DNA of 64,000 nucleotides from an uncultured Thiothrix sp. GTDB taxonomy: Bacteria; Pseudomonadota; Gammaproteobacteria; Poriferisulfidales; GCA-002705445. The DNA is taken from positions 2,170-66,169 of the forward strand of contig CACEJE010000005.1 in assembly GCA_902559815.1 (NCBI GenBank), in the 5' to 3' direction. The translations under genes and the position numbers were made by a program. Under the pieces are notes generated by a model. That model saw only the letters and a list, made by a program, of their open reading frames with translations, searched no databases and was not told the DNA's origin. Within the stretch, counting starts at the first letter, position 1. Every line of letters starts with the position of its first letter. This document shows positions 2,005-51,059 of this stretch, piece by piece.

Positions 2005-2008
2005 AAAA

Positions 2009-20357: not shown

Positions 20358-20433
<76 letters not shown>

Positions 20434-20452
20434 ATTTTAACGAGTAAAAATA

Positions 20453-28959: not shown

Positions 28960-30129
28960 ATGAAATATTTAGAACAATTAAAAATAAACTTATTTATATC
29001 TACTTTAAGAAAATGTGATAAAGGTTCAATTAAAATAATTGATCCTGATAATAAAGTATTCGAAATAAATAAAACGTCTGAGATAATAGCCGACATAAAA
29101 ATAAATGATTGGTCTATAGTAAGCAATATGATTAAAAACGGAGATGTTGGTTTTGCGTCAGATTACAGAGATGGAAAATGGACTTCTTCAAATCTAAAAA
29201 ATCTTTTTACCTTTGCAATAATAAATGACAAAACATTATCAAAACTTCTATTTGGAAAACTTATTACAAGATTTTTTTCAAATATTAAGTATATTTATAA
29301 TAAAAATACTATTAAAGGTAGCAAAAAAAATATTGAAGCTCATTATGATTTAGGAAATAGCTTTTATAAAATATGGCTTGATGAATCATTAACATATTCT
29401 TCAGCTCTATTTTTGAAAGACAACAATACTCTTTATGATGCGCAGATTAATAAGTACAACCGTATCCGAGACATTTTAAAAACTTCAAATACTAATAATT
29501 TACTTGAGATTGGTACTGGCTGGGGTGGATTTTTAATGCAATCAAGAGATGATTTTAATCAATTGGATAGTATTACAATATCAAAAAGACAATACAAATA
29601 TGCTAGTGATTTACATAAAAATAATTCAAATATTAATGTAATTTACGATGACTATAGAAATATTGTAAAAAAATACAACTCGATTGTATCAATAGAAATG
29701 TTTGAGGCTGTAGGACAAGAATATTGGAATACATATTTTCAAAAAATTTATAATTTATTATCAAAAAACGGAAAAGCTGTTATACAAACTATCACTATTG
29801 ACGATAAGCTTTTTGACACCTATAAAAATAGCACAGACGCAATAAGAACATTTATTTTTCCGGGAGGTATGCTGCCCTCACCTAGTATATTTATGAAATA
29901 TGCAAAAAAAAATAGTTTTAATGTTTTAGATTCTTTTTCCTTCGGAGAATCATACTCGAAGACTTTAGATTTATGGAATGATAGTTTTAGAAAAAATATA
30001 AAAGAAGTAGAAAAATTAAATTTTGATAAAAAATTTATTAAAATTTGGGAATATTATTTAACCTCATGTTCATCAAGTTTTATTAACGAAAGAACAAATG
30101 TTTATCAATTTACACTCCAGAAAAATTAA
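28960..30129 (+). CDS. Cyclopropane-fatty-acyl-phospholipid synthase family SAM-dependent methyltransferase
   Basis: SAM motif LEIGTGWGG, with the C-terminal region typical of the CFA/mycolic acid synthase family. Confidence 0.8.
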   Translation: MKYLEQLKINLFISTLRKCDKGSIKIIDPDNKVFEINKTSEIIADIKINDWSIVSNMIKNGDVGFASDYRDGKWTSSNLKNLFTFAIINDKTLSKLLFGKLITRFFSNIKYIYNKNTIKGSKKNIEAHYDLGNSFYKIWLDESLTYSSALFLKDNNTLYDAQINKYNRIRDILKTSNTNNLLEIGTGWGGFLMQSRDDFNQLDSITISKRQYKYASDLHKNNSNINVIYDDYRNIVKKYNSIVSIEMFEAVGQEYWNTYFQKIYNLLSKNGKAVIQTITIDDKLFDTYKNSTDAIRTFIFPGGMLPSPSIFMKYAKKNSFNVLDSFSFGESYSKTLDLWNDSFRKNIKEVEKLNFDKKFIKIWEYYLTSCSSSFINERTNVYQFTLQKN

Positions 30130-32291: not shown

Positions 32292-32777
32292 TCACTCTAT
32301 AAATTTGTTATTACTAAATATTCCTTCGTTAACCAGCCCATTTTTAAAGATATATTTTCCTTTTCCGTTTCTTTTGCCTTTTCTCCATTGGCCTTCATAA
32401 ATATCCCCATTTGGAAAATTATATTTCCCAAATCCGTGTTTTTTCCCATTTTTAAAAGCCCCCTCATAAATTGCTCCGTGAACCCAGCAATAAAACATAC
32501 CTTCGCCAGATTCCTTGCCATTTGCAAATTCTCCTACATAGGTAGCTCCATCTTTATAAGTATATGTACCTTTTCCGTGAGGTAATCCATTCTGAAACTG
32601 CCCAACATAAGCTTCACCATTAGTAGCTATTGAGCCAATGCAATTTGTCCAATATAAACTATCATTACCCTTACATTTCTCTTGATCAGCAGAAAAAACA
32701 CTATTATTCGCTATCAAAATAACAAAAGTTAAAAATGAACTAAATTTTAAGGTTTTTAAACGCATAATAAAATTCAA
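32292..32777 (-). CDS. Secreted MORN-repeat protein
   Basis: Signal peptide plus tandem YxGxxxxGxxxGxG MORN repeats. Confidence 0.7.
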   Translation of the reverse strand: MNFIMRLKTLKFSSFLTFVILIANNSVFSADQEKCKGNDSLYWTNCIGSIATNGEAYVGQFQNGLPHGKGTYTYKDGATYVGEFANGKESGEGMFYCWVHGAIYEGAFKNGKKHGFGKYNFPNGDIYEGQWRKGKRNGKGKYIFKNGLVNEGIFSNNKFIE

Positions 32778-33790
32778 TTAAAAGATTTTTTTCCTATAAT
32801 TACCGGAACTCCTTTTGATTCTTCAAAAACTTTGAATACTTTATCCCAACTTATTGAAAAATTTGGATTTTTATCCAAGAAATTCATTACAGGCATTACA
32901 GGTTTAAATATATTATCTGTGGTTAAAGTATTTTTTTGGTTGTTTGAATAAACCTCTTTGTTGTTAAAAGCATGTACTTCCATATACACAAAATTATTAT
33001 ACAGACCAATTTTTATTGGCATATTAATTATTTTTACTTTTGTCCCTACTGGAGCATTATAAAATATAGTCTCTATATCTTCATTTCTCAATCTAATACA
33101 TCCATGCGAAACCATCATTCCAATACCGTGTTTTTTATTTGTGCCATGCAATAAATAACCACCATCAATATTTAATTTTAAAGCGTAATTACCTAATGGG
33201 TTATCTGGTCCAGCCTCTACAGCTCTAGGCAATGTGTCACCTCTTTCTTCATACTCTTTTATTATAGATTTTGGCGGGTACCAAGTAGGACTTTTAACTT
33301 TGCTCTTTATGTATGTTTCTCCAAGTGGCGTCTTCCAATCAAGTCTACCAATACCTACTGGGTAGGTTAAAACTTTATAATTCTCATATAAATCTGATCC
33401 ACGCATATAATAATACAGTCGAAGCTCGGCCAAATTTAAAATAATACCATTATAGTATTTTTGTGGCAGAACATACATAGATGGGATAATGTATTCTGAA
33501 TTAGTGGCTGGGCTCCAATGGTGTGATTCAGGATTTGCAATTAGCAAATCCTGAAAGCCGGTTTTATAATTAATTGCTAGATCTGCTACAGTTTCGTTTT
33601 CATCAACAATAATAGTTTTAATATCACCAATAACAGTTGATTTTGGATCTAAATCAAAAATTTCAAGCGCATTTGAACAGTTTGTAAAAAACAGAAAAAA
33701 GATTATGGTATTAGTTAGCCTTTGATAACCTTTTAAATAAAATACATATTGAGAACAAAATTGTTTCATTATTTTGAATAATATTAACAT
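32774..33790 (-). CDS. L,D-transpeptidase (YkuD family); start probably internal (about 33769)
   Basis: Catalytic HGTNKKHGIGMMVSHGCIRL motif. The 5' end overlaps the holB 3' end. Confidence 0.75.
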   Translation of the reverse strand: MLILFKIMKQFCSQYVFYLKGYQRLTNTIIFFLFFTNCSNALEIFDLDPKSTVIGDIKTIIVDENETVADLAINYKTGFQDLLIANPESHHWSPATNSEYIIPSMYVLPQKYYNGIILNLAELRLYYYMRGSDLYENYKVLTYPVGIGRLDWKTPLGETYIKSKVKSPTWYPPKSIIKEYEERGDTLPRAVEAGPDNPLGNYALKLNIDGGYLLHGTNKKHGIGMMVSHGCIRLRNEDIETIFYNAPVGTKVKIINMPIKIGLYNNFVYMEVHAFNNKEVYSNNQKNTLTTDNIFKPVMPVMNFLDKNPNFSISWDKVFKVFEESKGVPVIIGKKSFN

Positions 33791-34616
33791 TTTTTTTAAT
33801 ACTGATTAATTTATCATAAATATAATTTAATTTCTTGTAATTATACGCTTTTAAAATATTTTCATTATCATCAAAAAATCTTGAATTTTTATTTGTAATA
33901 ATAGATTTTTGAAAATTAACTACCACAAATAAAATTATATTAATAATATGCTCAATATTATACACAGAGAATTTTTTTGAAAAATTTATAATATTTTCAG
34001 AGGAATGAATAACCTCATCTAAATCATAAAAAAAATCATTAATTATTGAAAATTTTTTTTCATAAAAGTTGTTTTTAACATATTTGCTGTTTAAGTTTGA
34101 TAAAATATAGTAATTGTCTAAATCAACATTTTCTAATTTTGATAAATAACTATTTATATCTGCATCCATTGGATTATTACACTTTATAATCGAAGATCTG
34201 CTTATAATTGTAGGCAGTAGAGATGAAATCTTTGAAGTCGTTAATATAAATTTAGATCCTGCTGGTGGCTCTTCAAGTATTTTAAGAATTGCATTTGAAG
34301 CATTAATGTTTAATTTGTCAGCATCTTTAATATAAATAATTTTTCTATCAGATTTAAAGTAGATTTTATCAATAACTTCTCTGATTTGATCAATCTTTAT
34401 TGCTTTAGAACCCTCTTCTACTGAGATTTTTATATAATCTTGTGTAACTATATTTTCTTCATTACTATAATTTAAATAATATTGGGCAATTTCCTCTGCA
34501 AGTATGTTTTTTCCAATGGATTTGTTACCTGTAATAATAACAGTATTTGGAAAGTTATTTATATCGATTAGATTTTTTAAATAGATATAAGTTTCTTCTA
34601 ACCAAGGTATATTCAT
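33711..34616 (-). CDS. holB: DNA polymerase III delta-prime subunit
   Basis: AAA+-like N-terminus (ITGNKSIGKNILA) at delta-prime length. Confidence 0.65.
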   Translation of the reverse strand: MNIPWLEETYIYLKNLIDINNFPNTVIITGNKSIGKNILAEEIAQYYLNYSNEENIVTQDYIKISVEEGSKAIKIDQIREVIDKIYFKSDRKIIYIKDADKLNINASNAILKILEEPPAGSKFILTTSKISSLLPTIISRSSIIKCNNPMDADINSYLSKLENVDLDNYYILSNLNSKYVKNNFYEKKFSIINDFFYDLDEVIHSSENIINFSKKFSVYNIEHIINIILFVVVNFQKSIITNKNSRFFDDNENILKAYNYKKLNYIYDKLISIKKNVNIIQNNETILFSICILFKRLSKAN

Positions 34617-34624
34617 TGCTATAT

Positions 34625-35767
34625 TTAACCTGTTAAATTTTCTTCATTCTCTAGGTTTCTATTTAAATTTTTAAAATAATTTAGTATCTCGCTTGGTCCA
34701 TTTTTAAGATACACATCTAAACTATTACCTTTGAATTCACAAAAAGATGAACTTGTTTCATAAATTTTGATTCTTTCTAGATTTGGTAAATAGGGAATTA
34801 AAATTTCCCATATAACAATAGATAAAAACTCAGTGCTAGAACGCCAGGATAGTTCAGGGCAAGTTAAGTTTAAGGTTTTGTGATCAAATTTGTCTATGAT
34901 TAAATTTTTTACGACTGCTTTAATTAGTGAATAGTCAACCACAAAACCAGTTAAAGGGTCAATTCTATCTTTAATAGAAATTTCAATATCATAACGACCG
35001 CCATGCATATTTTTACACTTTGCATCATGATCAGTAATATAATGCGCAGAATCAAATACAAGCTTTTTTGTTATCGTAGCTTCTGGCGAACTAATAAAAA
35101 ATTTATCATTAAAACAAGGTATTTTATTTAAAAATTCTTTAGTATTAGCTTTAAGTTTTTCACAATCATTTTTTGAAGCAAATCTTACAACAAATGTATC
35201 ATTAGAAATATTTAATTTAATAATTGAAATATCATAGGCATTTAATTGTTTTTTTAAATTTTGATATAAATTTTCTTCAATATTTTTTAAGTATATATAA
35301 TCTTTTAAAATGTACCCATTGTTAATAAGTAAGATTGCTAAATATAGAAAGAAATCTTTGGTCTTTGTGGTTTTTAGTTCAAGTAAATTAATATTTTCTT
35401 TATTATTTGATATAAAGTTTTCTGTAATAACTTTATGTGATTCGTGACTGTAATTATTAAGATCATCGTATTCGAACCCAAGGCTTGATAATTGATCATT
35501 AAGCCAAAACAAATAATTTAACTTACGAACCTCTTCATAAATATATATACGTCCATCTTTTAAAACTAGCTTATTTAAATCACTATAAGCTTTAAGAATT
35601 GTCTTTTGTTTTTCTGTAGTTTTTGCATTAACTACATTTTTTAATTTTTTTTTAATTTTATTTGATCCTAATGGATCTATGAGCGTTTCAATTGGTATCG
35701 CATGTTTTAGTGAATACTCTTGCAGTGTTAATCCATCTTTATATCTATTTTTATCTTTCAATGACAT
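34625..35767 (-). CDS. Fusion protein: unknown N-terminal domain (about 230 aa) plus C-terminal 6-pyruvoyl-tetrahydropterin synthase/QueD-like domain
   Basis: The C-terminus aligns by eye to the PTPS/QueD fold: FDSAHY, CKNMHGGRY, DPLTGFVVDYSLIK, FDHKTLN and an ETS tail. The expected HGH zinc motif reads HGG. Confidence 0.55.
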   Translation of the reverse strand: MSLKDKNRYKDGLTLQEYSLKHAIPIETLIDPLGSNKIKKKLKNVVNAKTTEKQKTILKAYSDLNKLVLKDGRIYIYEEVRKLNYLFWLNDQLSSLGFEYDDLNNYSHESHKVITENFISNNKENINLLELKTTKTKDFFLYLAILLINNGYILKDYIYLKNIEENLYQNLKKQLNAYDISIIKLNISNDTFVVRFASKNDCEKLKANTKEFLNKIPCFNDKFFISSPEATITKKLVFDSAHYITDHDAKCKNMHGGRYDIEISIKDRIDPLTGFVVDYSLIKAVVKNLIIDKFDHKTLNLTCPELSWRSSTEFLSIVIWEILIPYLPNLERIKIYETSSSFCEFKGNSLDVYLKNGPSEILNYFKNLNRNLENEENLTG

Positions 35768-35812
35768 TTAATTCGATGGCTAACCTCGTGGTAAAAATTT
35801 TATTAGCAAGAG

Positions 35813-35846
35813 TTGCGTCAGTCTTCATAAGGCGAAGCTGACGCAA
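35813..35846 (-). terminator. GC-rich 9-bp stem hairpin after fae (putative terminator or attenuator)
   Basis: TTGCGTCAG, a 16-nt loop, then CTGACGCAA lie 24 nt downstream of the fae stop. An A/U-rich tract follows on the transcript. Confidence 0.35.
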
Positions 35847-35869
35847 ATACTTACAAACATTAAGATGTT

Positions 35870-36394
35870 TTAGAATCCTTGGAAAGGATGGTCTGTAGCA
35901 TCTTTTTTAGCTAACATATCGTCAACAGAAGGTGTGCCTTTAACAGCAGCTTCTATAGCGCCTTTAGTAGCTTTATAGTTATTTTCATAAATAGCTTCGT
36001 CACTATTTGCTTCCCAATGGATAAATACGCCAACACATATGTAAAGATCGTCAGCTTCACCCTTTGGAATAACACCTGACTCAACGCTATCAGCAACAGC
36101 CATAGCTACTGCTTTCTGAGCAGGACCAAACATTTGAACAGCTTGCTTAGCACCTTTAATTGTAACTTTGTTAAACATCATAGTATTTGGTTTACAAACT
36201 AAGTTTGGGCCAACTACTGCTAATAAAGATGTAAAACCATCTTTGTTATTACAAAGACCATTACAAAATGCTGTTTCTACTGCTGAGCCTCTTGGACCGA
36301 TTAATAAATCGATATGAGCAATCTCTGCCATAGTTCCTGTTGGGTCGTTATCATTTACTAGACATTCCCCCACTAAAACTTTATTTATTGCCAT
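35870..36394 (-). CDS. fae: Formaldehyde-activating enzyme
   Basis: 174 aa, collinear with Methylobacterium Fae: [48 protein letters not shown] and VGVFIHWEA. Confidence 0.9.
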
Positions 36395-36471
36395 GATATA
36401 ACTCCTATTATTATAAATTATTGTAAAAAGTAGTATTCAATACTGAATTCCATTGAATAACTAAGTTTCAA

Positions 36472-37317
36472 TTATAAACCCAAGCGGTTGAAAAATACAC
36501 TAGCCACTACAACGTCAGCCGTTGTTCCAGGATTTAACCCTTGTATCTTAAGCTCAGAATCCAGTAATAACAACTTTTTATTTAATATTTTTGGGTTTTT
36601 TAGCTCACAATATTCATTTGCAAGCGATTTTACTTGTTCAGAGACGTTTTTTGCCTTCATAACACCATATTTTCTTGCAATCAGACTATCTGGCCTTTTT
36701 GACAGAAGACTTAAAAATGTTGCAGTTGTAGCAGACTCATCATTATTCATTTTATTAAAGCATATTCTCCAAAATGGAGATAAATTATTGATAATATTGT
36801 CAAAAAAACAATAATACTCGTTAGCAATATCATCGTAAGAACTTGCGTATTTCATAGCTTCGTAAAGTTTAAAATTACAATTGCCAGACTTTTTAATATC
36901 ATATTCGTCTTTTTCTCCCATTCCCCCAGCATTTGCTATATTAATTGCTTCATATATTTTTTTTGTTTGCTTATGATCAATATCTAGAATGGTTTTCTTT
37001 AAATTTTCTCGTGAAAATCTATGTTTCTCATCAAGATACAAACTTTGTACAATAGGGGTGCAGAGTAAAATAATACCTAGATTAGTGTTGCATCCAACCA
37101 CATCCACTGAAGATTTAACGCTTTCATATATCTTAGTGCCAATATCCATACCTTTTTCGCAAATAATGTCAGAGCATGCCATAGAACTTTGAAGGAAGTC
37201 TTTGTGCGTCATATTATAGCCAGGATTATTATATGAAACGTTACCTGGTTTTATTGAGAAAACATCAAGTTTGCAAGAATATTCAAATGCCATTTTAACT
37301 TGGGTCTCAGTTATCAA
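36472..37317 (-). CDS. Triphosphoribosyl-dephospho-CoA synthase (CitG)-like protein (orf7 of methylotroph H4MPT islands)
   Basis: LNPGTTAD motif and about 280 aa, embedded in the fae/mch cluster. Confidence 0.55.
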   Translation of the reverse strand: MITETQVKMAFEYSCKLDVFSIKPGNVSYNNPGYNMTHKDFLQSSMACSDIICEKGMDIGTKIYESVKSSVDVVGCNTNLGIILLCTPIVQSLYLDEKHRFSRENLKKTILDIDHKQTKKIYEAINIANAGGMGEKDEYDIKKSGNCNFKLYEAMKYASSYDDIANEYYCFFDNIINNLSPFWRICFNKMNNDESATTATFLSLLSKRPDSLIARKYGVMKAKNVSEQVKSLANEYCELKNPKILNKKLLLLDSELKIQGLNPGTTADVVVASVFFNRLGL

Positions 37318-38198
37318 TTTTTCTCCTTACAGATACGTAAAAAATTATTAATTATTTCGTCAGCAATAATCCTATCATTGTGAACTGACTGCAAACCTTT
37401 CCAAGCAGGAATACTATTTACTTCCGTTACCATATAGCCATTATCACCTAACATAATATCAACGCCTGAGTAATCCATATTTAGAGCATTAGAGGCCTTC
37501 AAAGCAATTTCTACCATTTCTCTTGAAGGCTTAAATGATTTACAAGAAGCTCCATTAGCGATATTGTTTATCCAAGTTTTTCCTTCGCGAACCATCGAAG
37601 CTATAACTTCGTTTTTTATAACAAATAATCTCCAGTCAATAAATTTACTCTCAGGATGATTTAAGTATTCTTGCAAATAATAAACATTATTTAAATTTTC
37701 ATAATCAGGATGAGAATTATTTTTATCCAAGATCTCCAATCCTTTGCCTTGGGAACCAAAGATAGGTTTAGAAACACATTTATTTTCAAAAAATTCTTTT
37801 TTAAATTTATTTAGATCTTTGATGTTACTTGTAATGTATGTTTTTGGCGTTGGAATATTACTCGCGCTCAATATACTTGATGTTCTTATTTTATCAACAC
37901 TTTTTTCAATGCATACTGTATTGTTATAAACACAGACATTATAAAGCTCTAAATAATGTAAAATATCTAAATGAAAGATAACTTCTTCGAGAGTACCGCC
38001 TGGTATGCCTCTTACAAAAGCACCTTCAATATCCTTTAAAAAATACTCTTTTGAGTCTATTATAATTTTAGGAATATCTTCAAGAACTAGTGATGAATTA
38101 TTGATTTTTGCAGTTATTACTTTTTTTTTATTTTTTTCAAAAGATTTTATTAATTGACTAGTATGCCATCCATCGTCTTCGGTAAAAATTAAATACAT
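37314..38198 (-). CDS. ATP-grasp RimK-like ligase (orf5/MptN-like, H4MPT glutamylation candidate)
   Basis: ATP-grasp motifs (KPIFGSQGKG, MVTEVNSIP) with 4-nt overlaps to its neighbours. Confidence 0.6.
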   Translation of the reverse strand: MYLIFTEDDGWHTSQLIKSFEKNKKKVITAKINNSSLVLEDIPKIIIDSKEYFLKDIEGAFVRGIPGGTLEEVIFHLDILHYLELYNVCVYNNTVCIEKSVDKIRTSSILSASNIPTPKTYITSNIKDLNKFKKEFFENKCVSKPIFGSQGKGLEILDKNNSHPDYENLNNVYYLQEYLNHPESKFIDWRLFVIKNEVIASMVREGKTWINNIANGASCKSFKPSREMVEIALKASNALNMDYSGVDIMLGDNGYMVTEVNSIPAWKGLQSVHNDRIIADEIINNFLRICKEKN

Positions 38199-38199
38199 T

Positions 38200-39162
38200 T
38201 TATATCCCGAAAGACTTTTTCATTAATTCAGAGTCGATATCACCACTTGTAAAAGTATTTCCAGTTTTCATATTTGATATTATAACTTTACTAGGGCTAA
38301 AAAGATTTCCATCTATTTTAAAAAAATCATATTCATAATCTTTAAAAATATCTGCAAAAGGCTTACCGTAATCATTTGATGTAGAGCTCGGCATTTTATT
38401 ACATAGATCTTTTGCCATATCGTCAGATGTATTTACGAATAGTTGGGTAACTCCTGCAAAAATTATTGCGTCATTTGTTCTGCCCATTGCAGTTAAGAAT
38501 TCTGGCGATGTTGGTGGTATTGGGGCGCTTCCAAAGCCCTCTATAATTTCGTTCATCGGAAATTTAAGTTCGTGTGCTTTATGTAGGGCTACTTCTAAAA
38601 CTCTTGAGACAACTTGTAAATTACCGGCGATACTAGATGTTGGGGTTAATATTATAGTTATATTTTCTGCTTTAACACCTGTGTCTTTTTCAATTTTTTC
38701 AACAATATCTTTTGGTGGAAAACAATCTACTTCCATTACGATACAAGTTTTATCGTTTTTATCTGAATAGTTAATATCTTTAAATAAAGCCTCTTTTAAA
38801 GCTAAAGCTCTACCTGGGCCAGAACCTAATGCGTTAAATTTTACACCCTCCTCCTTAGAAGATAAGCTCCATCCGGCATATTGAGATCCTAAGCAAGCAA
38901 TTACGGGGTCATTAGAATTTACGTGAACTGTAAGAGGCCATTCAGGTGCTTGGAAAGTATTTAAAATATGTACTCTACCTAGGCCACCTAGACATATTTC
39001 ACTAATTATTCTACCGGCCTCAATATTGCCAAGTGCATTTATTCCGGCGTCAATAATAGTTACGTTTTTATGTCCTTTAGAAACATCAACCCTATAATAT
39101 GACTTATTAAGAATTAAATCATCAACCAAGGTTTGAGCTTTTTTATTCACACTAATCATCAA
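38200..39162 (-). CDS. mch: Methenyl-tetrahydromethanopterin cyclohydrolase
   Basis: 320 aa with IIDAGINALGNIEAGRIISEICLGGLG, closely matching the Mch N-terminal signature. Confidence 0.85.
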   Translation of the reverse strand: MMISVNKKAQTLVDDLILNKSYYRVDVSKGHKNVTIIDAGINALGNIEAGRIISEICLGGLGRVHILNTFQAPEWPLTVHVNSNDPVIACLGSQYAGWSLSSKEEGVKFNALGSGPGRALALKEALFKDINYSDKNDKTCIVMEVDCFPPKDIVEKIEKDTGVKAENITIILTPTSSIAGNLQVVSRVLEVALHKAHELKFPMNEIIEGFGSAPIPPTSPEFLTAMGRTNDAIIFAGVTQLFVNTSDDMAKDLCNKMPSSTSNDYGKPFADIFKDYEYDFFKIDGNLFSPSKVIISNMKTGNTFTSGDIDSELMKKSFGI

Positions 39163-40313
39163 ATTATCTCTGTATTATTAAGTTCATTTTTTATTAATGA
39201 TATATTATCTGATAACAATTTATCAGCTTTTTTTTCATCATATGATTTGACACGTATTGTACATATAGGATCACCAGCTTCAATAAAGCAATTTGTTTTT
39301 GGCACATTAGATACAAAATCATATTTTAATAAGTCAAAAGTATATTTAAAATCTTCTTTAGCAAATATTGTTTCAAATGCATAGGATGAATTCTCTTCAT
39401 TGACAATATCTGGCATTTTGCCATTAATAATACTATCAATATGAGCGTTAACATAGCCGAGCTTGAAATAATCATCATACATAAAACAGGTTTGCGTTAA
39501 TCTTGGGTTTATTTCAAGAAAATAAATACTACTACCTTTAATAACGAAATCAATACCATTAATTCCAACTAAATCAAAATTATTAACAAAAAAATTAATT
39601 ATATTTTTTAATAATTCAATATAAGGAGGTTCTAGTTTTATATTTGATATGGCTCCAGAAAAACAATAATTTGTATTTTTTGTTTTTTTATTAAATATTT
39701 TATTAATACCAATTAATTTATAATCTTTTTTTTTATTAACAATAAAAAGTATTGAGTGAACATTTCCAGTAATAAACTCTTGAATATATTCATTGTCAGC
39801 TAAGATATAGTCTTTTGTATAATCTTTAATTCCAAATCCACCAGATAGATCTTTATTTTTAATTAGCTTTTTTTCTTTATTTAGAATTTCTAAATTATAA
39901 TCTTTTGGAACTTTAATTCCACTTTTATATAATTGATTAAATAATATTTTACTATATTTTGTTTCAGCAAATATATCTTGTTTGTTATTTGCTAAATAAC
40001 CATATTTGTTTAGATTTTCATCATAATCCCTTTTAGTATCAAAACCTGATGCGACGATTATTATAGTATCTTCTTTTTTTAAATTTAGTTTTTTTATTAT
40101 TTCAATAACATCGTCATTTACAAATCCAAAAGAGTTCTTATTTAAATAGCACTCTCCTTTTAAGTCGTCATCATTAAATGAGTCAATATTGATTACTCTT
40201 TTATTTAATTTAATAAGTGATTTACTGTGCTCAACTACTGAATTACCAATTATTATTATATTATTTTGATGATACATACTCTCTTGCAAGCTCAAGTGCA
40301 TCATGAAAATCAA
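39159..40313 (-). CDS. ATP-grasp family protein (orf17-like, H4MPT-associated)
   Basis: ATP-grasp-like C-terminal half, conserved in position between mtd and mch. The start may be an internal Met. Confidence 0.45.
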   Translation of the reverse strand: MIFMMHLSLQESMYHQNNIIIIGNSVVEHSKSLIKLNKRVINIDSFNDDDLKGECYLNKNSFGFVNDDVIEIIKKLNLKKEDTIIIVASGFDTKRDYDENLNKYGYLANNKQDIFAETKYSKILFNQLYKSGIKVPKDYNLEILNKEKKLIKNKDLSGGFGIKDYTKDYILADNEYIQEFITGNVHSILFIVNKKKDYKLIGINKIFNKKTKNTNYCFSGAISNIKLEPPYIELLKNIINFFVNNFDLVGINGIDFVIKGSSIYFLEINPRLTQTCFMYDDYFKLGYVNAHIDSIINGKMPDIVNEENSSYAFETIFAKEDFKYTFDLLKYDFVSNVPKTNCFIEAGDPICTIRVKSYDEKKADKLLSDNISLIKNELNNTEII

Positions 40314-41163
40314 GAAATACAGGTTTTTCTGAGCTAGCCATTTTTTTTAATAACTTGCTTTGTGCTTGATATTTAACTTGACCTATAGCAAGAGCACCAA
40401 TTCCTAGTGCGCCAGAAACGGAACCAGATAATTCCTTGCAGTCTTGCATAGCATCAAGGCCAGCCACACCTGAAGGAGGAACTGCATTTACATCAGCTGC
40501 AACTTTCAAATTCATTGCAAGCTTTAATTGCTCCTCAGATACTAGCTGAATACCAGCAGCACCGCTTGCAAGTACTATATCAACTTGGTCAATCATTTGA
40601 TTAAATTCATCGTTTGATGCGCCTGATATTTTTGCGTCTGAACCCAAATAGTTATCTATACAATATTTTGATAACTCTTCACATTTGTCCTTTTTCCTTC
40701 CCATTATTACAACATCTGCCCCTGCTGATGCCGCTAATATTCCGGCTATACAGCCAACTGGCCCAGTACCACCAAAGACAACAACTTTTTGATTTTCCAA
40801 AGACTTCTCAAACTTGTTTTTTAAAGAATCTTCTACTTTTGCAATCATGCCGGCTGCGGTTGTATATGCCCCACTTGGATCCGCAAAAGCAGAAACGGTA
40901 AATGGAGGAACTAATGAATTTTTACATATTTTTAACATTTCAATTGCTATATGTGGGTCTCTTCCACCAATAAAAATTCCTGTTTTATTTAAGCCTGGCG
41001 GCCTGGAAAAAATAGCATCTTGAACAATCCCCTCGACTTCACTAGCCTCGATATTAGTGTAAGGGACGCATTTATCCCATCCAGCATCATAGGCCATATT
41101 CACATCAAAAGGACTAAGATTTTTTGCTGTTGTTAACATATGCATTATTAATGGTTTACTCAT
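40261..41163 (-). CDS. NAD(P)-dependent methylene-tetrahydromethanopterin dehydrogenase (MtdA/MtdB family)
   Basis: Collinear with MtdA: FDV..AYDAG, IFIGG, DPSGAYTTAAG, a VFGGTGPVG Rossmann motif and GALGIGAL. Confidence 0.75.
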   Translation of the reverse strand: MSKPLIMHMLTTAKNLSPFDVNMAYDAGWDKCVPYTNIEASEVEGIVQDAIFSRPPGLNKTGIFIGGRDPHIAIEMLKICKNSLVPPFTVSAFADPSGAYTTAAGMIAKVEDSLKNKFEKSLENQKVVVFGGTGPVGCIAGILAASAGADVVIMGRKKDKCEELSKYCIDNYLGSDAKISGASNDEFNQMIDQVDIVLASGAAGIQLVSEEQLKLAMNLKVAADVNAVPPSGVAGLDAMQDCKELSGSVSGALGIGALAIGQVKYQAQSKLLKKMASSEKPVFLDFHDALELAREYVSSK

Positions 41164-41173
41164 AATTTATTCC

Positions 41174-42178
41174 TTATTTTATATTTAAATTTTTATCTTG
41201 ATTTATATTTTTGTTCTCATCGAATTCAATCAATGAGCCTTTATTACGACCTTTGATAATTTCTATACGTAAGTTTTTACAAAAAAAATTATTCCTAATA
41301 TCTTTTGTGAGTTTATGTGCTGAGGTATCACTATCTGCTAGAATAAATCCTGTCGGCCCCCATGAACTTTGACCAACACCCATAAAGCCTTTTTTTTCCA
41401 CATAATTCATGATATTTGCAATATCTTGATTTGAATAAACTCCTCCTTGTATCGGAGAAAAATGTGTTCCAACAACTTTTTGTAATTGACCTATACCTTC
41501 AGAAAAATCAGAAAAATTATTTTCTTTTAGGCTTGGTAATATTGCCATATTTACTAAACGACAAAGTTTTTCTGATAAAGTCCCAGGAAATGGTTTAAGA
41601 GTTTTAAAAGCATTATACTCTTTTTGGCCGTGTATACCTTTTTCTCTACTATTTATTAAAAGAATTATTCTCCAGTTATCTGGAAAATTTTGTCTCACTG
41701 TAATTGGTGGTAGTTCTGGCGACTTGCCTTTTCCACCATCAATTAAAAATCCACCACTTTCAAATGCACCTATGCCTATACCTGACCTATTACCTCTGTC
41801 TAGTACTTTTCCTATATCCATTAAACTTAAATTAAGATCAAATAATTTTGATACTGCAACTCCAACACTAAGAGCAAGCTGAGTTCCAGAACCTAATCCA
41901 GCATGCTCTGGAATTTTTTTATGAACGTCAATTAATACAGTTTCATCAACTTCGTAAGCTTTTAAAATTAAATCAGCATATTCATAAGCTCTTTTGTTAA
42001 TCTCATTTAATACTTTATTTTGATTTAATGAATTTTTTGAAACAGTTATTGACGTTTCAATGCTATTTATAGCTAATCCAACACTCCCAAATTTACGTCC
42101 AAGAGAGCCACTTAAATCCATAAAACCTAAATGTAGTCTAGCTGGAGAAGTTATTTTTATTTTTGTTTTAGTTTTCAT
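41174..42178 (-). CDS. mptG: GHMP-kinase-fold beta-ribofuranosylaminobenzene 5'-phosphate synthase-like protein
   Basis: GHMP motif HAGLGSGTQLALS at about 334 aa, first gene of the H4MPT module. Confidence 0.55.
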   Translation of the reverse strand: MKTKTKIKITSPARLHLGFMDLSGSLGRKFGSVGLAINSIETSITVSKNSLNQNKVLNEINKRAYEYADLILKAYEVDETVLIDVHKKIPEHAGLGSGTQLALSVGVAVSKLFDLNLSLMDIGKVLDRGNRSGIGIGAFESGGFLIDGGKGKSPELPPITVRQNFPDNWRIILLINSREKGIHGQKEYNAFKTLKPFPGTLSEKLCRLVNMAILPSLKENNFSDFSEGIGQLQKVVGTHFSPIQGGVYSNQDIANIMNYVEKKGFMGVGQSSWGPTGFILADSDTSAHKLTKDIRNNFFCKNLRIEIIKGRNKGSLIEFDENKNINQDKNLNIK

Positions 42179-42200: not shown

Positions 42201-45200
42201 TTATTTTAGATGCATTCTAGCATTATAGAAAAATTTCGACCAAGGAGATATTATTTCCTCATCATTTGTCGGAAATTGTTTTATATTCATCAACCTTTCA
42301 GGATGAGGCATCATAAGAGTAACGTTACCAGATAGTGAAGATACCCCAGCAATACCTTTATATGACCCATTTGGATTATATGGATATAACTCGGTACGAT
42401 TGTCACGATCACTTAAATAACTTATACAAATCTGCTGGTTACTTTCTAGTTTTTTATAATCTTCATCATTAAGGAAAGCTCTACCCTCACCATGGGATAT
42501 AACTATAGGTATTTTAGAGTCTTCCATTCCTGAAAGGAAGATGGAGTTTGATTTCTCAATATTAACCATAACTATTCTTGACTCAAACCTCTCACTTGTA
42601 TTTTGTAAAAAAAGTGGCCAGTGATCAGATCCTGGAATTATAGTTTTTAAGTTCGAAAGAGTTTGACATCCGTTACATATGCCAAGAGAAAACTTATCCA
42701 TATTATCAAAATAGTTAGAAAAATTATTTTGTAAAATTTCATTATGTAAAATTTTATTTGCCCATCCTCGTCCAGCGCCTAAAACATCACCATAAGAAAA
42801 GCCTCCACAGAAAACTATACCTTGAAATTTTTCTAGATAATTCTCTTTTGCAATTAACGAGTTCATTGTTACGTCTATTGCATCAAATCCGTACATACTA
42901 AAAGCATTTGCCATTTCATAATGCCCATTAATACCTTGTTCTCTTAGAATTCCAACTTTTGGTTTTGTTTTGTTTATGAAAAAATTTTTCTGTATATCAG
43001 AATCTGAGAATTTCTTATCAATATAAAGGCCTTTATTTTCATATTTTCCTATAAAGTCATATTCACACTTAGCGGTTTTTGAATTATCTCTAATATTTTG
43101 TATCTCATAACTAGTTCTATGCCAAGTTTTATGAAGAGTTTCTAGTGAGTTGTTATAAATTAGATTTTTTTTGTTAAAAATATTTATTTCATATGAAGAA
43201 TTAATATTTGCGATGACATAATTTTCGACATTAATTCCGTAATAAGCATCCTGAACTAAAGATAAAAATTTATTAGGAATTTGCATTACTACTCCAAGTT
43301 CCTCATTAAACATAAATTCATTCAGCTTTGAAATATTTTTGTCATAAAGAATATCTAAGCCAACATGTCCTGCAAATGCTGATTCCAACAATGTTACAAT
43401 TAGCCCTCCGTCAGATTTATCATGGTATGATAATATTTTATTATTTTTCATTAATTCTTGAGTAACATTAAAAAAATTTTTAAATTTTTGGATATCCTCA
43501 ACTTTCGGGCATTTTGAATCATTTGTTTGTAAAACCTGTGATAATGCAGACCCCCCTGTTCTAATATTGCCGTTAGAAAGATCAATAAAAATAATTGAAG
43601 TATCTTTTTTATTTACAAACATTGGCTTAACAATATTCTGTAAGTTATCAATATTTGAAAATGCACTTATTATTAAAGTATTTGGTGATTTTACACTTAT
43701 ATCTTTTTGTTTTTCAGACCAAGACATTTTCATTGACAAAGAGTCTTTTCCAACTGGTATAGATATTCCTAATTTATTACATATATTTGATGTAACTGAT
43801 TCAGCAGTTTTGAAAAGCTGATATTTGTCAAAGTCACTGTCAAAACTTGACATCCAATTTGCTGATAGAGCAATTTTAGCAATATTTTCTATTGGCGCTG
43901 AACATATATTTAGTAGAGCTTCGCAAACTGCCAGCTCCCCTGAGGCAACTGGATTATAAACTGCGATAGAAGATTTTTCCCCTAATGACATAACTTCACC
44001 TGAATTAAAAGAAAAGTCATTTGAAGTTACTGCGCAGTCAGCAATTGGCACTTGCCAAGGGCCAATAAATTGATCTTGAACAGTTAAACCACCAACGGTT
44101 CTGTCACCAATTGTTATTAAAAACTGTTTAGATGCTACAGCTGGCAAAGACAATACTTTTGTTAAACAATCGTCAAATTTATAATTACTGTAATTATAGC
44201 CAATCTCTTCAATAATGCTGGAAGTAGTTTCAATTTGCTGCTTTCCCTTTTCCCCAAAAAGTATATTCATAGGAAGATCAATAAATGATTTCTTTTTATC
44301 TTTTAATACAAATCTTTTTTCATTAGTTGCGGTTCCAATTACTGAAAATGGACAATTTTCTTTAAGGCAAGTTTTTTCAAATATATTTAAATCAGATTTC
44401 TTAATAGCTAAAACATAACGTTCTTGAGATTCATTACACCATATTTCCAATGGATTTAAGCTTTTGTCAGCGCAAGGAATTTTATCAATATCAATAATTG
44501 CACCTTTATTACTATCATTCACAAGTTCTGGAACTGCATTAGATAAGCCACCAGCCCCAACATCATGAATTGAAATTATTATATTTTTCAATAGGTTAGA
44601 GATCTTATCTATAACTTCTTGACACCTTCTTTGCATTTCAGCATTTTCTCTTTGAACAGAAGCGAAATCTAGATCTTCATTTTCTCTAGAAGAATGCTTA
44701 GATGAAGCAGCTCCACCACCAAGTCCAACAAGCATTGACGGTCCTCCAAGAACAACAATCAAATCAGAATCTTCAATATCCATTTTTTTATAATTTGAAT
44801 GATCTATTGATCCAAAGCCACCAGCAATCATTATAGGTTTGTGGTATCCATAATATGAGTTTTCATCAATTTTTTGCTCAAACGTTCTAAAATATCCACT
44901 TAAACAAGGCCTACCAAACTCGTTATTGTATGAAGATGATCCTAGGGGGCCTTCAATCATAATATCTAACGCTGAAGCAATTCTATCAGGGTATGATAAG
45001 CTAATATTTTCTTCCCAAGACTGAATAAAGTTTGGAATATTCAAATTTGACACATTAAAACCACATAGACCTGCTTTAGTTTTAGACCCTCTGCCAGTTG
45101 CGGCCTCATCTCTTATTTCTCCGCCTGAACCTGTTGCAGCACCTGAATAAGGCGAGATTGCTGTTGGGTGATTATGGGTTTCGACCTTAATTACACTATG

Positions 45201-46043
45201 GGTATCTATATCCTTATAAACATAATAACCATCTTTATCTACAATTAATTTTTTTGTTTTAAATGAACTAATTACAGCAGAATTATCAGAATATGCTTTA
45301 ATTATATGTTTAGATTTTTCAGGCTCAGTGGACCTAATAAATTGAAACAAAGTTTTTTCTTGATCTGCACTATCAATAATCCACGAAGAATTAAATATTT
45401 TATGTCTGCAATGCTCAGAATTTACTTGCGCAAACATCATTAGCTCTACATCAGTAGGCTTTCTATTTAAAGTAATATAATTACGATTTAGATAATTTAT
45501 TTCATCATTTGACAAAGCTAAACCAAGAGCTTTATTTGATTGTTCTATATAAGATAGTATATCACCTTCAATTCTTATTTTTTCCCTTGGCTCTATAGAT
45601 GTAAAATTATAATCTTTGATATCAAAAAAAATTGTTTCTGTCATTTTATCGAAAAATTCTACATAAAAATCTTCGTTGTTAATGATATTTTTATCAATAT
45701 TATCATTAAAAATATATAATTTGGCTTGCTCGATAGTTTTAAGCTTTTTTAAACCACTTGCATAAAAAATATCTCTAGCTTTTGACCCCCAAGAAGATTC
45801 AACACCCACTCTTGGTGTTACAAGAAAGTAATTAGAAGTACTTATATATTTGGGCAGATCATTTGACAGAAGTAATTTTTTAGCAAGATTTTGTTCTTCG
45901 GTGTTAAAACTTGATTCTAAATCTAAAAAATATACATAATACATTGAAAATAATGAAGAAATATTGAATTTTTTTGAGATTTTATTGTAAATCTTTTGAT
46001 TTAGCTGAGTATTTGAAATCTCATTTTCACACAATATATGCAT
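42201..46043 (-). CDS. purL: Phosphoribosylformylglycinamidine synthase, single-chain large form
   Basis: 1280 aa with FGAM synthase AIRS domains (GAATGSGGEIRDE) and a C-terminal glutaminase domain (GICNGCQ). Confidence 0.95.
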   Translation of the reverse strand: MHILCENEISNTQLNQKIYNKISKKFNISSLFSMYYVYFLDLESSFNTEEQNLAKKLLLSNDLPKYISTSNYFLVTPRVGVESSWGSKARDIFYASGLKKLKTIEQAKLYIFNDNIDKNIINNEDFYVEFFDKMTETIFFDIKDYNFTSIEPREKIRIEGDILSYIEQSNKALGLALSNDEINYLNRNYITLNRKPTDVELMMFAQVNSEHCRHKIFNSSWIIDSADQEKTLFQFIRSTEPEKSKHIIKAYSDNSAVISSFKTKKLIVDKDGYYVYKDIDTHSVIKVETHNHPTAISPYSGAATGSGGEIRDEAATGRGSKTKAGLCGFNVSNLNIPNFIQSWEENISLSYPDRIASALDIMIEGPLGSSSYNNEFGRPCLSGYFRTFEQKIDENSYYGYHKPIMIAGGFGSIDHSNYKKMDIEDSDLIVVLGGPSMLVGLGGGAASSKHSSRENEDLDFASVQRENAEMQRRCQEVIDKISNLLKNIIISIHDVGAGGLSNAVPELVNDSNKGAIIDIDKIPCADKSLNPLEIWCNESQERYVLAIKKSDLNIFEKTCLKENCPFSVIGTATNEKRFVLKDKKKSFIDLPMNILFGEKGKQQIETTSSIIEEIGYNYSNYKFDDCLTKVLSLPAVASKQFLITIGDRTVGGLTVQDQFIGPWQVPIADCAVTSNDFSFNSGEVMSLGEKSSIAVYNPVASGELAVCEALLNICSAPIENIAKIALSANWMSSFDSDFDKYQLFKTAESVTSNICNKLGISIPVGKDSLSMKMSWSEKQKDISVKSPNTLIISAFSNIDNLQNIVKPMFVNKKDTSIIFIDLSNGNIRTGGSALSQVLQTNDSKCPKVEDIQKFKNFFNVTQELMKNNKILSYHDKSDGGLIVTLLESAFAGHVGLDILYDKNISKLNEFMFNEELGVVMQIPNKFLSLVQDAYYGINVENYVIANINSSYEINIFNKKNLIYNNSLETLHKTWHRTSYEIQNIRDNSKTAKCEYDFIGKYENKGLYIDKKFSDSDIQKNFFINKTKPKVGILREQGINGHYEMANAFSMYGFDAIDVTMNSLIAKENYLEKFQGIVFCGGFSYGDVLGAGRGWANKILHNEILQNNFSNYFDNMDKFSLGICNGCQTLSNLKTIIPGSDHWPLFLQNTSERFESRIVMVNIEKSNSIFLSGMEDSKIPIVISHGEGRAFLNDEDYKKLESNQQICISYLSDRDNRTELYPYNPNGSYKGIAGVSSLSGNVTLMMPHPERLMNIKQFPTNDEEIISPWSKFFYNARMHLK

Positions 46044-47203: not shown

Positions 47204-47557
47204 GGGGGCGATCTGGATTCGACGTGGATTGCAAAGCCCTAGGTGCATGTCGAGTATATAGCTATTCTCGTTAAAAATGCTATAAACTTATAGTTGCAAA
47301 CGAAGACAACTACGCACTAGCAGCTTAATCCTGCTGGTCATCATTCAGAAACGTGCTTGTGCATTTCAGTTTGGTGTCGCTTAACACAAGATAGTAATTA
47401 TTTTCGCCATTAGAATAATTATGAAACCCAATTGGATAGTGTAACAAAGTGTCTGCTCGTTAACATTAGTTGCATGAAATTTAATAACGAAGCTAAACAT
47501 GTAGTACCGAAGGTAGAGGATTTGCGGACGCGGGTTCAATCCCCGCCGCCTCCACCA
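47204..47557 (+). ncRNA. ssrA: tmRNA (ssrA), standard one-piece form
   Basis: 5' GGGGGCGATCTGGATTCGACG pairs with 3' CGCCTCCACCA, including the G3:U wobble. It has a tRNA-like T-arm GGTTCAATCCCC. The tag reading frame GCA AAC GAA GAC AAC TAC GCA CTA GCA GCT TAA (47296-47328) encodes ANEDNYALAA. Confidence 0.85.
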
Positions 47558-47623: not shown

Positions 47624-48103
47624 TTAATTATCGTTATCAAAGTTTTTAAGATATTTTTTTAAACTGCTTTCTCGTAACTCGTCTGCTGTTCCGTCAAAAA
47701 GTTTACACGTGCTTTTTATCTGAGAGTTTTTATCAGGCGAAAAAGTAATATTCAAATCTTCTGTATCTAAATAGTAATCAAGCTTTGGGACTTCTACGAC
47801 TTTCTTTTTCCAGTTTTTCTCGTTATCATTTTTATTTAACTTATTATATATTTCTAGTTTTTTATCAGCTTTTAAATAAAGGTATCTAGGATTATTTAAA
47901 AAACCATATGTTCCCTCTCGGATTCCGATATCAAAATAAACAAGAAAATAATTAGTAGTTTGGTATCTTTTATTATCTAGAAAATTGTATGTTACAAGTA
48001 AATTATGTTCTTCACAAAATAAATTTATTCCACTCATATTCTTTGAAGCAAACACCTGTGAAGAAAATAAGAACAAACAGATTGTAAGTAACTTGGCTTT
48101 CAT
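47624..48103 (-). CDS. Hypothetical secreted protein
   Basis: Has a signal peptide and low-complexity, Asn/Lys-rich sequence. Confidence 0.35.
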   Translation of the reverse strand: MKAKLLTICLFLFSSQVFASKNMSGINLFCEEHNLLVTYNFLDNKRYQTTNYFLVYFDIGIREGTYGFLNNPRYLYLKADKKLEIYNKLNKNDNEKNWKKKVVEVPKLDYYLDTEDLNITFSPDKNSQIKSTCKLFDGTADELRESSLKKYLKNFDNDN

Positions 48104-48126
48104 TATTTAAATTTATTTAAAAAATT

Positions 48127-48525: not shown

Positions 48526-48607
48526 AATAATTCCGAAAGATAAATAAATATTTTAAAATTAAATATATTATAATTAAATAAGCATTTTAATTACAGCTTT
48601 AAAAAAT

Positions 48608-51058: not shown

Positions 51059-51059
51059 T

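Follow-up and report, generated by a model that had tools for sequence, protein, structure and literature searches.

What is the function of a protein in which a pterin-enzyme fold with an altered metal site is fused to a large N-terminal domain, and what links its gene to that of the formaldehyde-activating enzyme (fae)? We address this question for an open reading frame (ORF) in a 64,000-nucleotide stretch of DNA from an uncultured Thiothrix sp. (contig CACEJE010000005.1), here called the window. The ORF, hereafter the target, is a single uninterrupted reading frame of 380 aa that forms the last gene of the operon mptG–mtdB–orf5–mch–orf7–orf9–fae–target. It represents a conserved, misnamed subfamily of the QueD/6-pyruvoyl-tetrahydropterin synthase (PTPS) fold, which is tightly linked to fae and tetrahydromethanopterin (H4MPT) genes in mostly sulfur-oxidising proteobacteria. 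We tentatively propose, with a probability of roughly 40%, that the target is an accessory pterin-processing protein of the H4MPT module with an exapted LAGLIDADG domain and is most likely still an enzyme.

The two halves of the target protein

The features of the target gene are as follows, in window coordinates and from the N-terminus to the C-terminus of the protein.

34625..35767, minus strand: whole target ORF, 380 aa plus stop, ATG start; LAGLIDADG-like domain followed by a QueD-like T-fold
35678..35734, minus strand: helix motif at aa 12-30, GLTLQEYSLKHAIPIETLI, the remnant of a Ros/MucR-type zinc finger
35093..35620, minus strand: monomeric double-LAGLIDADG (homing-endonuclease-like) fold, aa ~50-225; model confidence about 80-96 and Foldseek matches
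35474..35530, minus strand: first LAGLIDADG-like helix, aa 80-98, ending in L-S-S-L-G-F; catalytic-acid position Leu96, in the family Tyr, Leu or Phe
35312..35353, minus strand: second LAGLIDADG-like helix, aa 139-152, ending in I-N-N-G-Y; catalytic-acid position Asn150, in the family Ala, Val, Ile, Lys or Asn
34727..35083, minus strand: PTPS/QueD T-fold domain, aa 229-347; Pfam, NCBIfam, PDB sequence matches and Foldseek
34997..35044, minus strand: active-site stretch at aa 242-257, H-YIT-DH-DAK-C-KNM-H-G-G, by alignment to QueD
34880..34885, minus strand: D295-H296 within FDHKTLN, equivalent to the catalytic-triad Asp-His that QueD/PTPS proteins contribute across subunits; invariant in 80/80 sequences
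34754..34759, minus strand: E337-T338 in YETSSS, with the pterin-anchoring Glu of PTPS/QueD, invariant in 80/80 sequences
34628..34726, minus strand: C-terminal tail, aa 348-380, beyond the canonical QueD end; two short predicted helices

Profile, fold and catalytic residues place the target in the PTPS/COG0720 T-fold superfamily, whose fold has the order beta-beta-alpha-alpha-beta-beta. The Pfam PTPS profile (PF01242) matches aa 231-347 with an E value of 3e-27 and 95.4 bits against a cutoff of 22.4, and the match extends over profile positions 1-120 of 121. The NCBIfam QueD model TIGR03367 scores 74.0 bits, under its equivalog cutoff of 89.25, and the broader PTPS/QueD family model TIGR00039 (74 bits) likewise stays under its curated cutoff. 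The best solved relatives by sequence are Pseudomonas aeruginosa QueD (2OBA, E value 1.4e-16), rat PTPS and Escherichia coli QueD (E values to 5e-12). An AlphaFold2 (AF2) model of the full-length protein was built from a 26-sequence alignment, with a mean predicted local distance difference test score (pLDDT) of 81.8 and a predicted template-modelling score (pTM) of 0.78. In Foldseek, the C-terminal part of this model superimposes on QueD with a target-normalised template-modelling score (TM) of 0.84-0.88 and a root-mean-square deviation (rmsd) of 2.4-2.5 A, and across QueD/PTPS chains with a TM of 0.72-0.88 and an rmsd of 2.3-3.5 A. A preliminary description of the locus, made from the sequence alone, had assigned roughly the last 150 aa to this fold. 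The assignment is upheld by structure for a 119-aa T-fold, and the remaining ~33 aa form an additional tail, in whose region G347, L350, G357 and F365 are conserved.

The active site departs from that of QueD at one metal ligand. In E. coli QueD, the Cx3HGH motif aligns as H16...C27-GRL-H31-G-H33; the target keeps the first His (H242), the catalytic Cys (Cys251) and the middle His (His255), and Gly257 replaces the third His, so that residues 251-257 read CKNMHGG. The loss of one zinc ligand had been anticipated in the preliminary description, which also called for an alignment of the catalytic residues; by this alignment C251, D295-H296 and E337 correspond to E. coli C27, D70-H71 and E110 and are invariant in 80/80 species-level sequences. 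These sequences come from the loci of 80 of the 164 relatives introduced below (+/-10 kb each; 81 loci enter the context counts) and share an overall identity of only 30-35%. A family-specific pair, D246-H247, lies in the loop that joins the first His to the catalytic Cys, with D246 fixed in 80/80 sequences and H247 in 78/80; R258, Y259 and W308-R309 are equally fixed. The complete set of fixed or nearly fixed residues comprises F238, D239, A241, H242, I244, T245, D246, H247, C251, N253, H255, G256, G257, Y259, D295, H296, N300, W308, R309, S310-S311-T312-E313, E337, T338 and C343. The fixation of both the catalytic residues and the newly acquired ones at such low overall identity is consistent with a functioning rather than a decaying active site. 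By sequence, the D246-H247 loop position is analogous to that of a loop Cys/His in QueD2, and D246 or H247 may stand in for the lost metal ligand. The residue after the catalytic Cys varies across the family (S30, K15, A12, E12, V8) and is K252 in the window. In 12/81 homologues the motif reads CENLHGG, with a Glu at the position that defines PTPS-I/III hybrids (CExxHGH) and with HGG kept.

The N-terminal half, in which the preliminary description recognised no motif, does have an identifiable fold. No Pfam or NCBIfam model matches the first 230 aa at E <= 0.01. Modelled alone, the domain reaches a pLDDT of 82.4, and the top 50/50 Foldseek matches in the PDB are LAGLIDADG proteins (TM about 0.5-0.6), including I-Tsp061I (E value 2.4e-5), the WhiA N-terminal domain, I-SceI, PI-SceI, I-DmoI and the bI3 maturase; the same proteins rank behind the QueD matches when the full model is searched. 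The Pfam profiles LAGLIDADG_1/2/3 do not match the window protein, and sub-threshold matches occur in two relatives only (LAGLIDADG_2 at 20.4 bits, LAGLIDADG_3 at an E value of 0.006). The domain shares with homing endonucleases the double alpha-beta-beta-alpha-beta-beta-alpha fold and the two packed LAGLIDADG helices. It differs from them in having no profile match, no catalytic acids and no sign of mobility, with a fixed N-terminal site and conserved synteny in 73/81 loci. Because both catalytic-acid positions are non-acidic, we regard the domain as nuclease-dead, and an active homing endonuclease is rejected since the catalytic acids are gone and the position is fixed. After the Gly of the second motif, 52/80 relatives carry a Glu, and the window protein carries a Tyr. 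WhiA and the LAGLIDADG maturases resemble the target in combining a monomeric double-LAGLIDADG scaffold, the loss of catalytic acids and a host function, and the WhiA N-domain (3HYJ/3HYI) is among the top three structural matches. However, WhiA binds DNA and carries a C-terminal helix-turn-helix, whereas the target has a T-fold and a mostly acidic LAGLIDADG domain, and the sequence similarity between the two is at noise level.

The LAGLIDADG fold is preceded by the remnant of a zinc finger. Most relatives begin with M-x-C-L-E-C-x9-10-H-L-x2-C-C-G-L-T-L-Q-E-Y-A-x-R-H-x-L-P-L-D, and 61/81 possess the Cys/His zinc ligands, all four of which are missing from the window protein. Their consensus CLECx9-10HLxxC(C)GLTxQEYxxRHxLPLD aligns with Ros87 (2JSP), the top PDB match for this finger (E value 0.074), including the four zinc-ligand positions. 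Unlike in Ros/MucR proteins, the fourth ligand is Cys rather than His, the segment is net acidic and the Pfam ROS_MUCR matches, which recur among the relatives, remain sub-threshold (best 24.3 bits against a cutoff of 25.4). In the window clade only GLTLQEYSLKH is retained, with the ligands lost. An independent loss of the ligands, again with the GLTLQEY motif retained, is seen in Chromatiaceae (L049, L060 and L063; Thiorhodococcus / Chromatiaceae). The zinc finger has thus been lost at least twice. The N-domain has a median net charge of -8 and a pI of 5.6 across the 80 species, with positive values confined to the AT-rich window clade, and the finger region also carries a net negative charge. 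The acidity of the domain and the repeated loss of the finger together argue against a DNA-binding role.

Is the fusion of these two halves genuine, as the preliminary description assumed? Among 5.8 billion proteins, the target matches 203 clusters, and almost all of the listed ones are 380-385 aa long with 99-100% query coverage; a 45%-identical homologue of 393 aa on a Tara contig lies in the same mtdB...fae-target order. Because more than 200 clusters span the full query and this homologue shares the synteny, a frameshift or two-ORF artefact is excluded. With the N-terminal 229 aa as query, phmmer was run exhaustively against 1.84 billion cluster representatives and yielded 22 proteins, among which the full-length matches (363-415 aa) all carry the C-terminal PTPS domain. 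No intact stand-alone N-domain was found among the 22; the shorter matches inspected, which did not include the shortest, were P0126 (281 aa), P0130 and P0117 (239 aa, on a 295-kb contig), and all three appear to be truncated or frameshifted copies. In P0126 and P0117, a frameshift or an N-terminal truncation may reflect occasional pseudogenes or wrongly called starts. Purifying selection acts on both halves: against an 87%-identical relative, dN/dS is 0.18 in the N-domain and 0.05 in the T-fold.

In a scan of one genome per GTDB species (185,579 species representatives), the fusion occurs in at least 164, mostly sulfur-oxidising Gamma- and Betaproteobacteria. The first of two groups is the window clade itself, which consists of low-GC marine metagenome-assembled genomes (MAGs) and single-amplified genomes labelled Thiothrix sp. 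or Gammaproteobacteria with 55-87% identity to the target. The gene has been kept in this low-GC clade, whose relatives include contigs of 1.06-1.1 Mb. The second group, again mostly sulfur oxidisers, includes Ca. Thiodiazotropha, Sedimenticola, Ca. Porisulfidus, Oxydemutatoraceae, Thiorhodococcus, Thiohalocapsa, Thiogranum, Thiobacillus, Gallionellaceae and Arenicellales. Cultured carriers of the gene include Thioalbus denitrificans (assembly GCA_003337735.1), Sedimenticola thiotaurini and Thiorhodococcus, and further complete or nearly complete carrier sequences are OZ245760.1, OZ241323.1, OZ244779.1, JBJKYB010000002.1 (1.06 Mb) and JAYQIN010000002.1 (1.1 Mb). A viral or plasmid origin was considered and rejected, as the matches in IMG/VR and PLSDB are ordinary QueD-type proteins that align with the T-fold half, and the N-domain is absent from both.

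Gene context in the window and in relatives

The operon that ends with the target is arranged as follows, together with the downstream neighbour holB.

41174-42178, minus strand: mptG, beta-RFAP synthase MptG
40261-41163, minus strand: mtdB
39159-40313, minus strand: ATP-grasp orf5/MyfB-like
38200-39162, minus strand: mch
37314-38198, minus strand: RimK/MptN-like ligase orf7
36472-37317, minus strand: CitG-like orf9
35870-36394, minus strand: fae, direct upstream neighbour of the target (Pfam Fae, E value 1e-64)
35815..35844, minus strand: GC-rich stem-loop in the 102-nt spacer, immediately past the stop codon of fae
33711..34616, minus strand: holB (DNA polymerase III delta'), beginning 8 nt past the target stop

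The proximity to fae and H4MPT genes that the preliminary description had pointed out is a property of the family. In the window, fae lies on the same strand 102 nt upstream (spacer 35768-35869), with mch and mtdB beyond it. Across the relatives, tblastn with island proteins places fae upstream on the same strand in 73/81 loci and within 400 bp in 69, which answers the earlier call for a co-occurrence check in other genomes. The recurrent clusters among the ORFs of the 81 loci are H4MPT/methylofuran island genes only. Neither queC, queE nor folE stands beside the target in the family-annotated neighbourhoods or the 81 loci, and the islands examined showed no regulator, other than possibly the target itself.

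Outside the window clade, the target lies in the middle of the island and is usually followed by the convergent HisA/HisF-like orf17, and then by genes for an MfnD-like ATP-grasp protein, a TIGR03123 protein, PabB and an MfnE-like kinase; a subset of loci also encodes, further downstream, MfnB, DUF447, a DHPS-like protein and a flavoprotein. The window clade carries the first half of the island only (mptG to fae plus target, 33711-42178), between purL (42201-46043) and holB, and the second half of other lineages (orf17, MfnD-like, TIGR03123, pabB, MfnE-like and others) is absent from the 64-kb window. The adjacency to holB was rejected as a functional clue, as it is seen in the window clade only and orf17 or pabB follows elsewhere. 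The HisA/HisF-like orf17 is essential for methylofuran synthesis (PMC8141765). An identity of the target with the orf17 of the literature was rejected because that gene is HisA/HisF-like and lies downstream on the opposite strand in relatives (PMC8141765).

Several loci depart from this arrangement. When the target lies off the island, it still adjoins pterin genes in three cases: a 4a-hydroxytetrahydrobiopterin dehydratase (pterin-4a-carbinolamine dehydratase, PCD) gene lies directly upstream and pabB downstream in L076 (9373-12576), pabB is a neighbour in L064, and in L024, from a gammaproteobacterial MAG (979-3907), moaE overlaps the target by 4 bp and is followed by moeA. The link to pterin genes is missing only in the off-island loci L032 and L042 (between a MerR-like gene and recJ). 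The context in L024 ties the target to molybdopterin rather than methanopterin genes. A PCD homologue also lies upstream of mptG in L073 and L077 (~2800-3200), and the PCD arrangement of L073, L077 and L076 echoes a pcbD-mptG pairing that has reportedly been found in Methylosinus. In four loci from Ca. Porisulfidus / Oxydemutatoraceae (L026, L033, L037 and L061), the gap between fae and the target contains an additional 0.7-3.8 kb. A Hydantoinase_A-type island gene (L002 10950-11996 and its relatives) passes the NCBIfam model TIGR03123, named "probable H4MPT-linked C1 transfer pathway protein", and also matches the MfnF model with 104 bits. The MfnF naming is thus inconsistent, as the literature applies it to the CitG-like orf9 as an MfnF homologue (PMC8141765).

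The spacer between fae and the target folds into an 11-bp interrupted stem, GCGUCAGCUUC...GAAGACUGACGC, within surroundings of 26% GC. The minimum free energy of the spacer is -28.5 kcal/mol (z = -4.5), and the hairpin probably separates the expression of fae from that of the target behind it. A terminator scan made no call on this stem-loop, and there is no T-run directly after the stem. A T-run, TTTTTTTG, is present in 19/55 fae-target spacers of relatives, and these T-runs are probably fae terminators. A k-mer search of 55 such spacers and 39 regions upstream of mptG, which is a weak test, recovered T-runs only and no long common motif.

Relation to known families and possible functions

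To which known T-fold family does the target correspond? QueD/PTPS-I (E. coli 4NTM, P. aeruginosa 2OBA) is closest, with the T-fold, 27-33% identity, the C-x3-H spacing, the first His, the catalytic Cys, the Asp-His of the xDHxxLN motif and the pterin-anchoring Glu in common. In contrast to QueD, the target has Gly for the third His, a His-to-Cys loop that is two residues shorter and contains the invariant Asp-His, and WRSSTE in place of NPTSE; it adds the 230-aa N-terminal domain and the 33-aa tail, scores under the equivalog cutoff and lacks que-gene neighbours. QueD2 is a low-zinc QueD paralogue (Acinetobacter baumannii 7V0F) linked to Zur, folE and queE, which is defined by Cx4HGH; a loop Cys or His between its first His and catalytic Cys joins metal binding, and Fe(II) supports its activity (PMC9894224). 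Some QueD2 proteins ("cluster 10") also have an N-terminal domain of ~180 aa of unknown function and a C-terminal extension (PMC9894224). The target resembles QueD2 in its rearranged and probably plastic metal site and in these extra segments. However, QueD2 keeps both His residues, whereas the target has a spacing of three and the Gly, matches QueD2 weakly (E value 2.8e-4 over aa 232-298) and is linked to fae/H4MPT genes instead of Zur, folE and queE. The PTPS-II motif Cx5HGH does not fit either, given a Cys-to-His spacing of three residues and a Gly in place of the last His.

PTPS-III proteins bear the signature ExxHGH, and hybrids bear CExxHGH; COG0720 enzymes of the PTPS-III/VI type provide the 6-hydroxymethyl-dihydropterin of folate synthesis and, in some archaea, that of H4MPT synthesis (PMC5041015). 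The target is like PTPS-III/VI in being a COG0720 T-fold that gene context links to a pterin cofactor pathway. In contrast to PTPS-III/VI, the target family is bacterial and fused to a LAGLIDADG domain, and the ExxHGH signature is absent: the window protein has K252 and HGG, and the 12/81 relatives with Glu all have HGG. The suggestion in the preliminary description, a PTPS-III-type side-chain cleavage that would serve the methanopterin branch, is therefore a reasonable hypothesis in view of the archaeal COG0720 enzymes (PMC5041015) and the pabB, pterin-4a-carbinolamine dehydratase and moaE neighbours. An assignment to PTPS-III is not supported, and a core step of the pathway is excluded. The function of PTPS-V is "still unclear" (PMC5041015). 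It is possible that the target family is a subgroup already noticed but uncharacterised, as it is set apart here from the QueD, QueD2, PTPS-II and PTPS-III signatures only. Neither Pfam nor NCBIfam has a curated family for the whole protein or its N-domain. A description of the fusion was not found in the full-text literature searched, Pfam, NCBIfam, the plasmid collection or IMG/VR, in keeping with the earlier impression that the architecture is undescribed, and the plasmid collection and IMG/VR contain no second occurrence outside chromosomal islands.

From the architecture, residue conservation, purifying selection and synteny observed above, we infer the substrate, catalysis, metal use and N-domain role as follows. 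The target would be a dedicated accessory component of the bacterial H4MPT/methylofuran one-carbon (C1) gene island. Its T-fold would bind a GTP-derived reduced pterin via Glu337 and the WRSSTE loop, and Cys251, Asp295 and His296 would perform acid-base chemistry on the C6 side chain of the pterin. The metal site would be remodelled, with His242 and His255 kept, Gly in place of the third His and Asp246-His247 probably compensating. The product would supply or recycle the pterin moiety of H4MPT, in an island-encoded side route comparable to archaeal PTPS-III/VI. The N-terminal half would be an exapted homing-endonuclease scaffold that functions in assembly, partner binding or regulation rather than DNA cleavage. 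This proposal of a pterin enzyme is supported by the intact T-fold, which is closest to bacterial QueD, by the invariant active-site residues, by the purifying selection and the position behind fae in 73/81 loci, by the retention of the gene in the low-GC window clade, by the archaeal COG0720 enzymes that produce the H4MPT pterin (PMC5041015) and by the off-island copies, which still adjoin pterin genes (PCD, pabB, moaE/moeA), and the remodelling of the metal site is made plausible by the coordination plasticity of QueD2 (PMC9894224).

Several observations weigh against this proposal. The third-His position is Gly in all members inspected (81/81 loci), leaving no three-His zinc site in the family; this count is biased by the presence of HGGRY in one of two fishing patterns, and 9/9 full-length relatives found via the N-domain alone also have HGG. 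The target carries none of the QueD, QueD2, PTPS-II and PTPS-III signatures. A zinc finger followed by a LAGLIDADG module is what would be expected of a nucleic-acid-binding protein. In the alphaproteobacterial H4MPT islands of the literature, orf17 directly follows fae and the target gene is missing (PMC3615186). Because of this absence and a presence in only ~164/185,579 species representatives, the gene is accessory and cannot encode a core step. Finally, the T-runs in many relatives and the strong hairpin in the window suggest that expression of the target may be uncoupled from that of fae.

If the protein does not process a pterin, it may respond to one. As a regulator or "trigger enzyme", the target would bind DNA or RNA through the finger and the degenerate LAGLIDADG domain, sense a pterin such as dihydroneopterin triphosphate (H2NTP), an H4MPT precursor or H4MPT itself through the T-fold, and tune the C1 island. 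BirA, NadR, ThiR and RbkR combine a pathway-enzyme domain with a DNA-binding domain and act as regulators within their cognate cofactor operons. All structural neighbours of the N-domain bind nucleic acid, including the transcription factor WhiA, the Ros/MucR-like C2HC finger of the relatives resembles a DNA-binding one, and the loss of a metal ligand is reminiscent of enzyme-derived sensor domains. The accessory distribution, the place at the end of the operon behind a hairpin/terminator and the lack of another regulator in the islands examined would also suit a low-abundance regulator. However, the N-domain and the finger region are net negative, the finger is gone in the window clade and Chromatiaceae, the Cys/Asp-His triad is invariant and would be needless in a pure sensor, and the k-mer search, albeit a weak test, gave no long DNA motif. 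The 4-bp overlap with moaE in L024 and the retention of the gene in the streamlined genomes of the window clade also speak against regulation. We rank the enzyme above the regulator because of the acidic N-domain, the lost finger, the invariant triad, the retention in the low-GC clade and the absence of a shared DNA motif, and regard the regulator as rather unlikely, although it is the main alternative. A related claim, that the family constitutes a new functional T-fold class of bacterial H4MPT metabolism, is somewhat unlikely as well. In an enzyme version of such a class, a metal site of two His plus Asp/His, possibly with iron, would make or repair a pterin intermediate that no known PTPS class produces; in a regulator version, the target would be the first transcription or RNA regulator to unite a T-fold pterin sensor with a domesticated LAGLIDADG nucleic-acid-binding module.

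The T-fold pocket may instead bind a pterin or H4MPT without chemistry, with the N-domain docked to partners, so that the target would serve as a carrier, shield the oxygen-sensitive cofactor or help to assemble Fae or the formyltransferase/hydrolase complex. The combination of kept pterin-anchoring residues with a broken metal triad, the tight adjacency to fae, whose product loads formaldehyde onto H4MPT, and an acidic N-domain suited to protein-protein contacts are consistent with this role. Nevertheless, it is quite doubtful, as the invariant Cys251, Asp295-His296 and Asp246-His247 are hard to explain without chemistry and we found no precedent for a T-fold cofactor carrier. It is improbable that the public annotation is right and the target is an ordinary QueD (6-carboxytetrahydropterin synthase) for queuosine with an extra domain. 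The closest solved and curated relatives are indeed QueD, and several sources name the target "6-carboxytetrahydropterin synthase" or "QueD family". However, the score stays under the equivalog cutoff, Cx3HGH is broken in every member, and the gene sits in an H4MPT island and never beside queC, queE or folE in the 81 loci. Homing endonucleases insert beside and into host genes, and the nuclease residues of the N-domain are gone, as would be expected if a LAGLIDADG gene had been fused by accident upstream of a queD-like gene and were now decaying. Such a selfish relic, or an assembly or frameshift artefact, is extremely improbable: at least 164 species representatives, at 30-35% identity, agree in architecture, length and position, the N-domain has a dN/dS of 0.18 and family-wide invariant residues, and no intact stand-alone N-domain was found among the phmmer matches, the shortest of which were not inspected.

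Significance and other features of the window

The labels "6-carboxytetrahydropterin synthase" and "QueD" probably give a false picture of the queuosine capacity of many genomes from sulfur oxidisers and from marine sources, because the defining motif is broken and the context is that of H4MPT, not queuosine. Several genes of the H4MPT/methylofuran island still lack an assigned function, and the target is a concrete candidate for genetics and biochemistry. Furthermore, the invariant His-to-Gly change together with the invariant loop Asp-His that may compensate for it provides a natural experiment in the metal-site plasticity of the T-fold, extending the case of QueD2. Domesticated LAGLIDADG domains are, to our knowledge, rare apart from WhiA and the maturases, and we know of no other that is fused to a metabolic enzyme fold. 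If either version of the new T-fold class is true, the target would be the first known case of a LAGLIDADG scaffold that was taken into a protein of small-molecule metabolism.

The remainder of the window contains a tRNA-Glu(UUC) at 20359-20434 (plus strand) and a tmRNA (tag ANEDNYALAA) at 47204-47557 (plus strand); no other Rfam family reaches its gathering score in the 64-kb window. Beside the tmRNA gene, the stretch 48000-52000 has the lowest GC of the window (0.23) and encodes a GNAT acetyltransferase as well as an 816-aa protein (48608-51058) whose C-terminal domain is a PD-(D/E)XK nuclease. This stretch may be an integrated element. Two further genes close to the locus are unrelated to the target, namely those for a small secreted-looking MORN-repeat protein (32292-32777, minus strand) and a cyclopropane-fatty-acid-synthase-like methyltransferase (28960-30129, plus strand).

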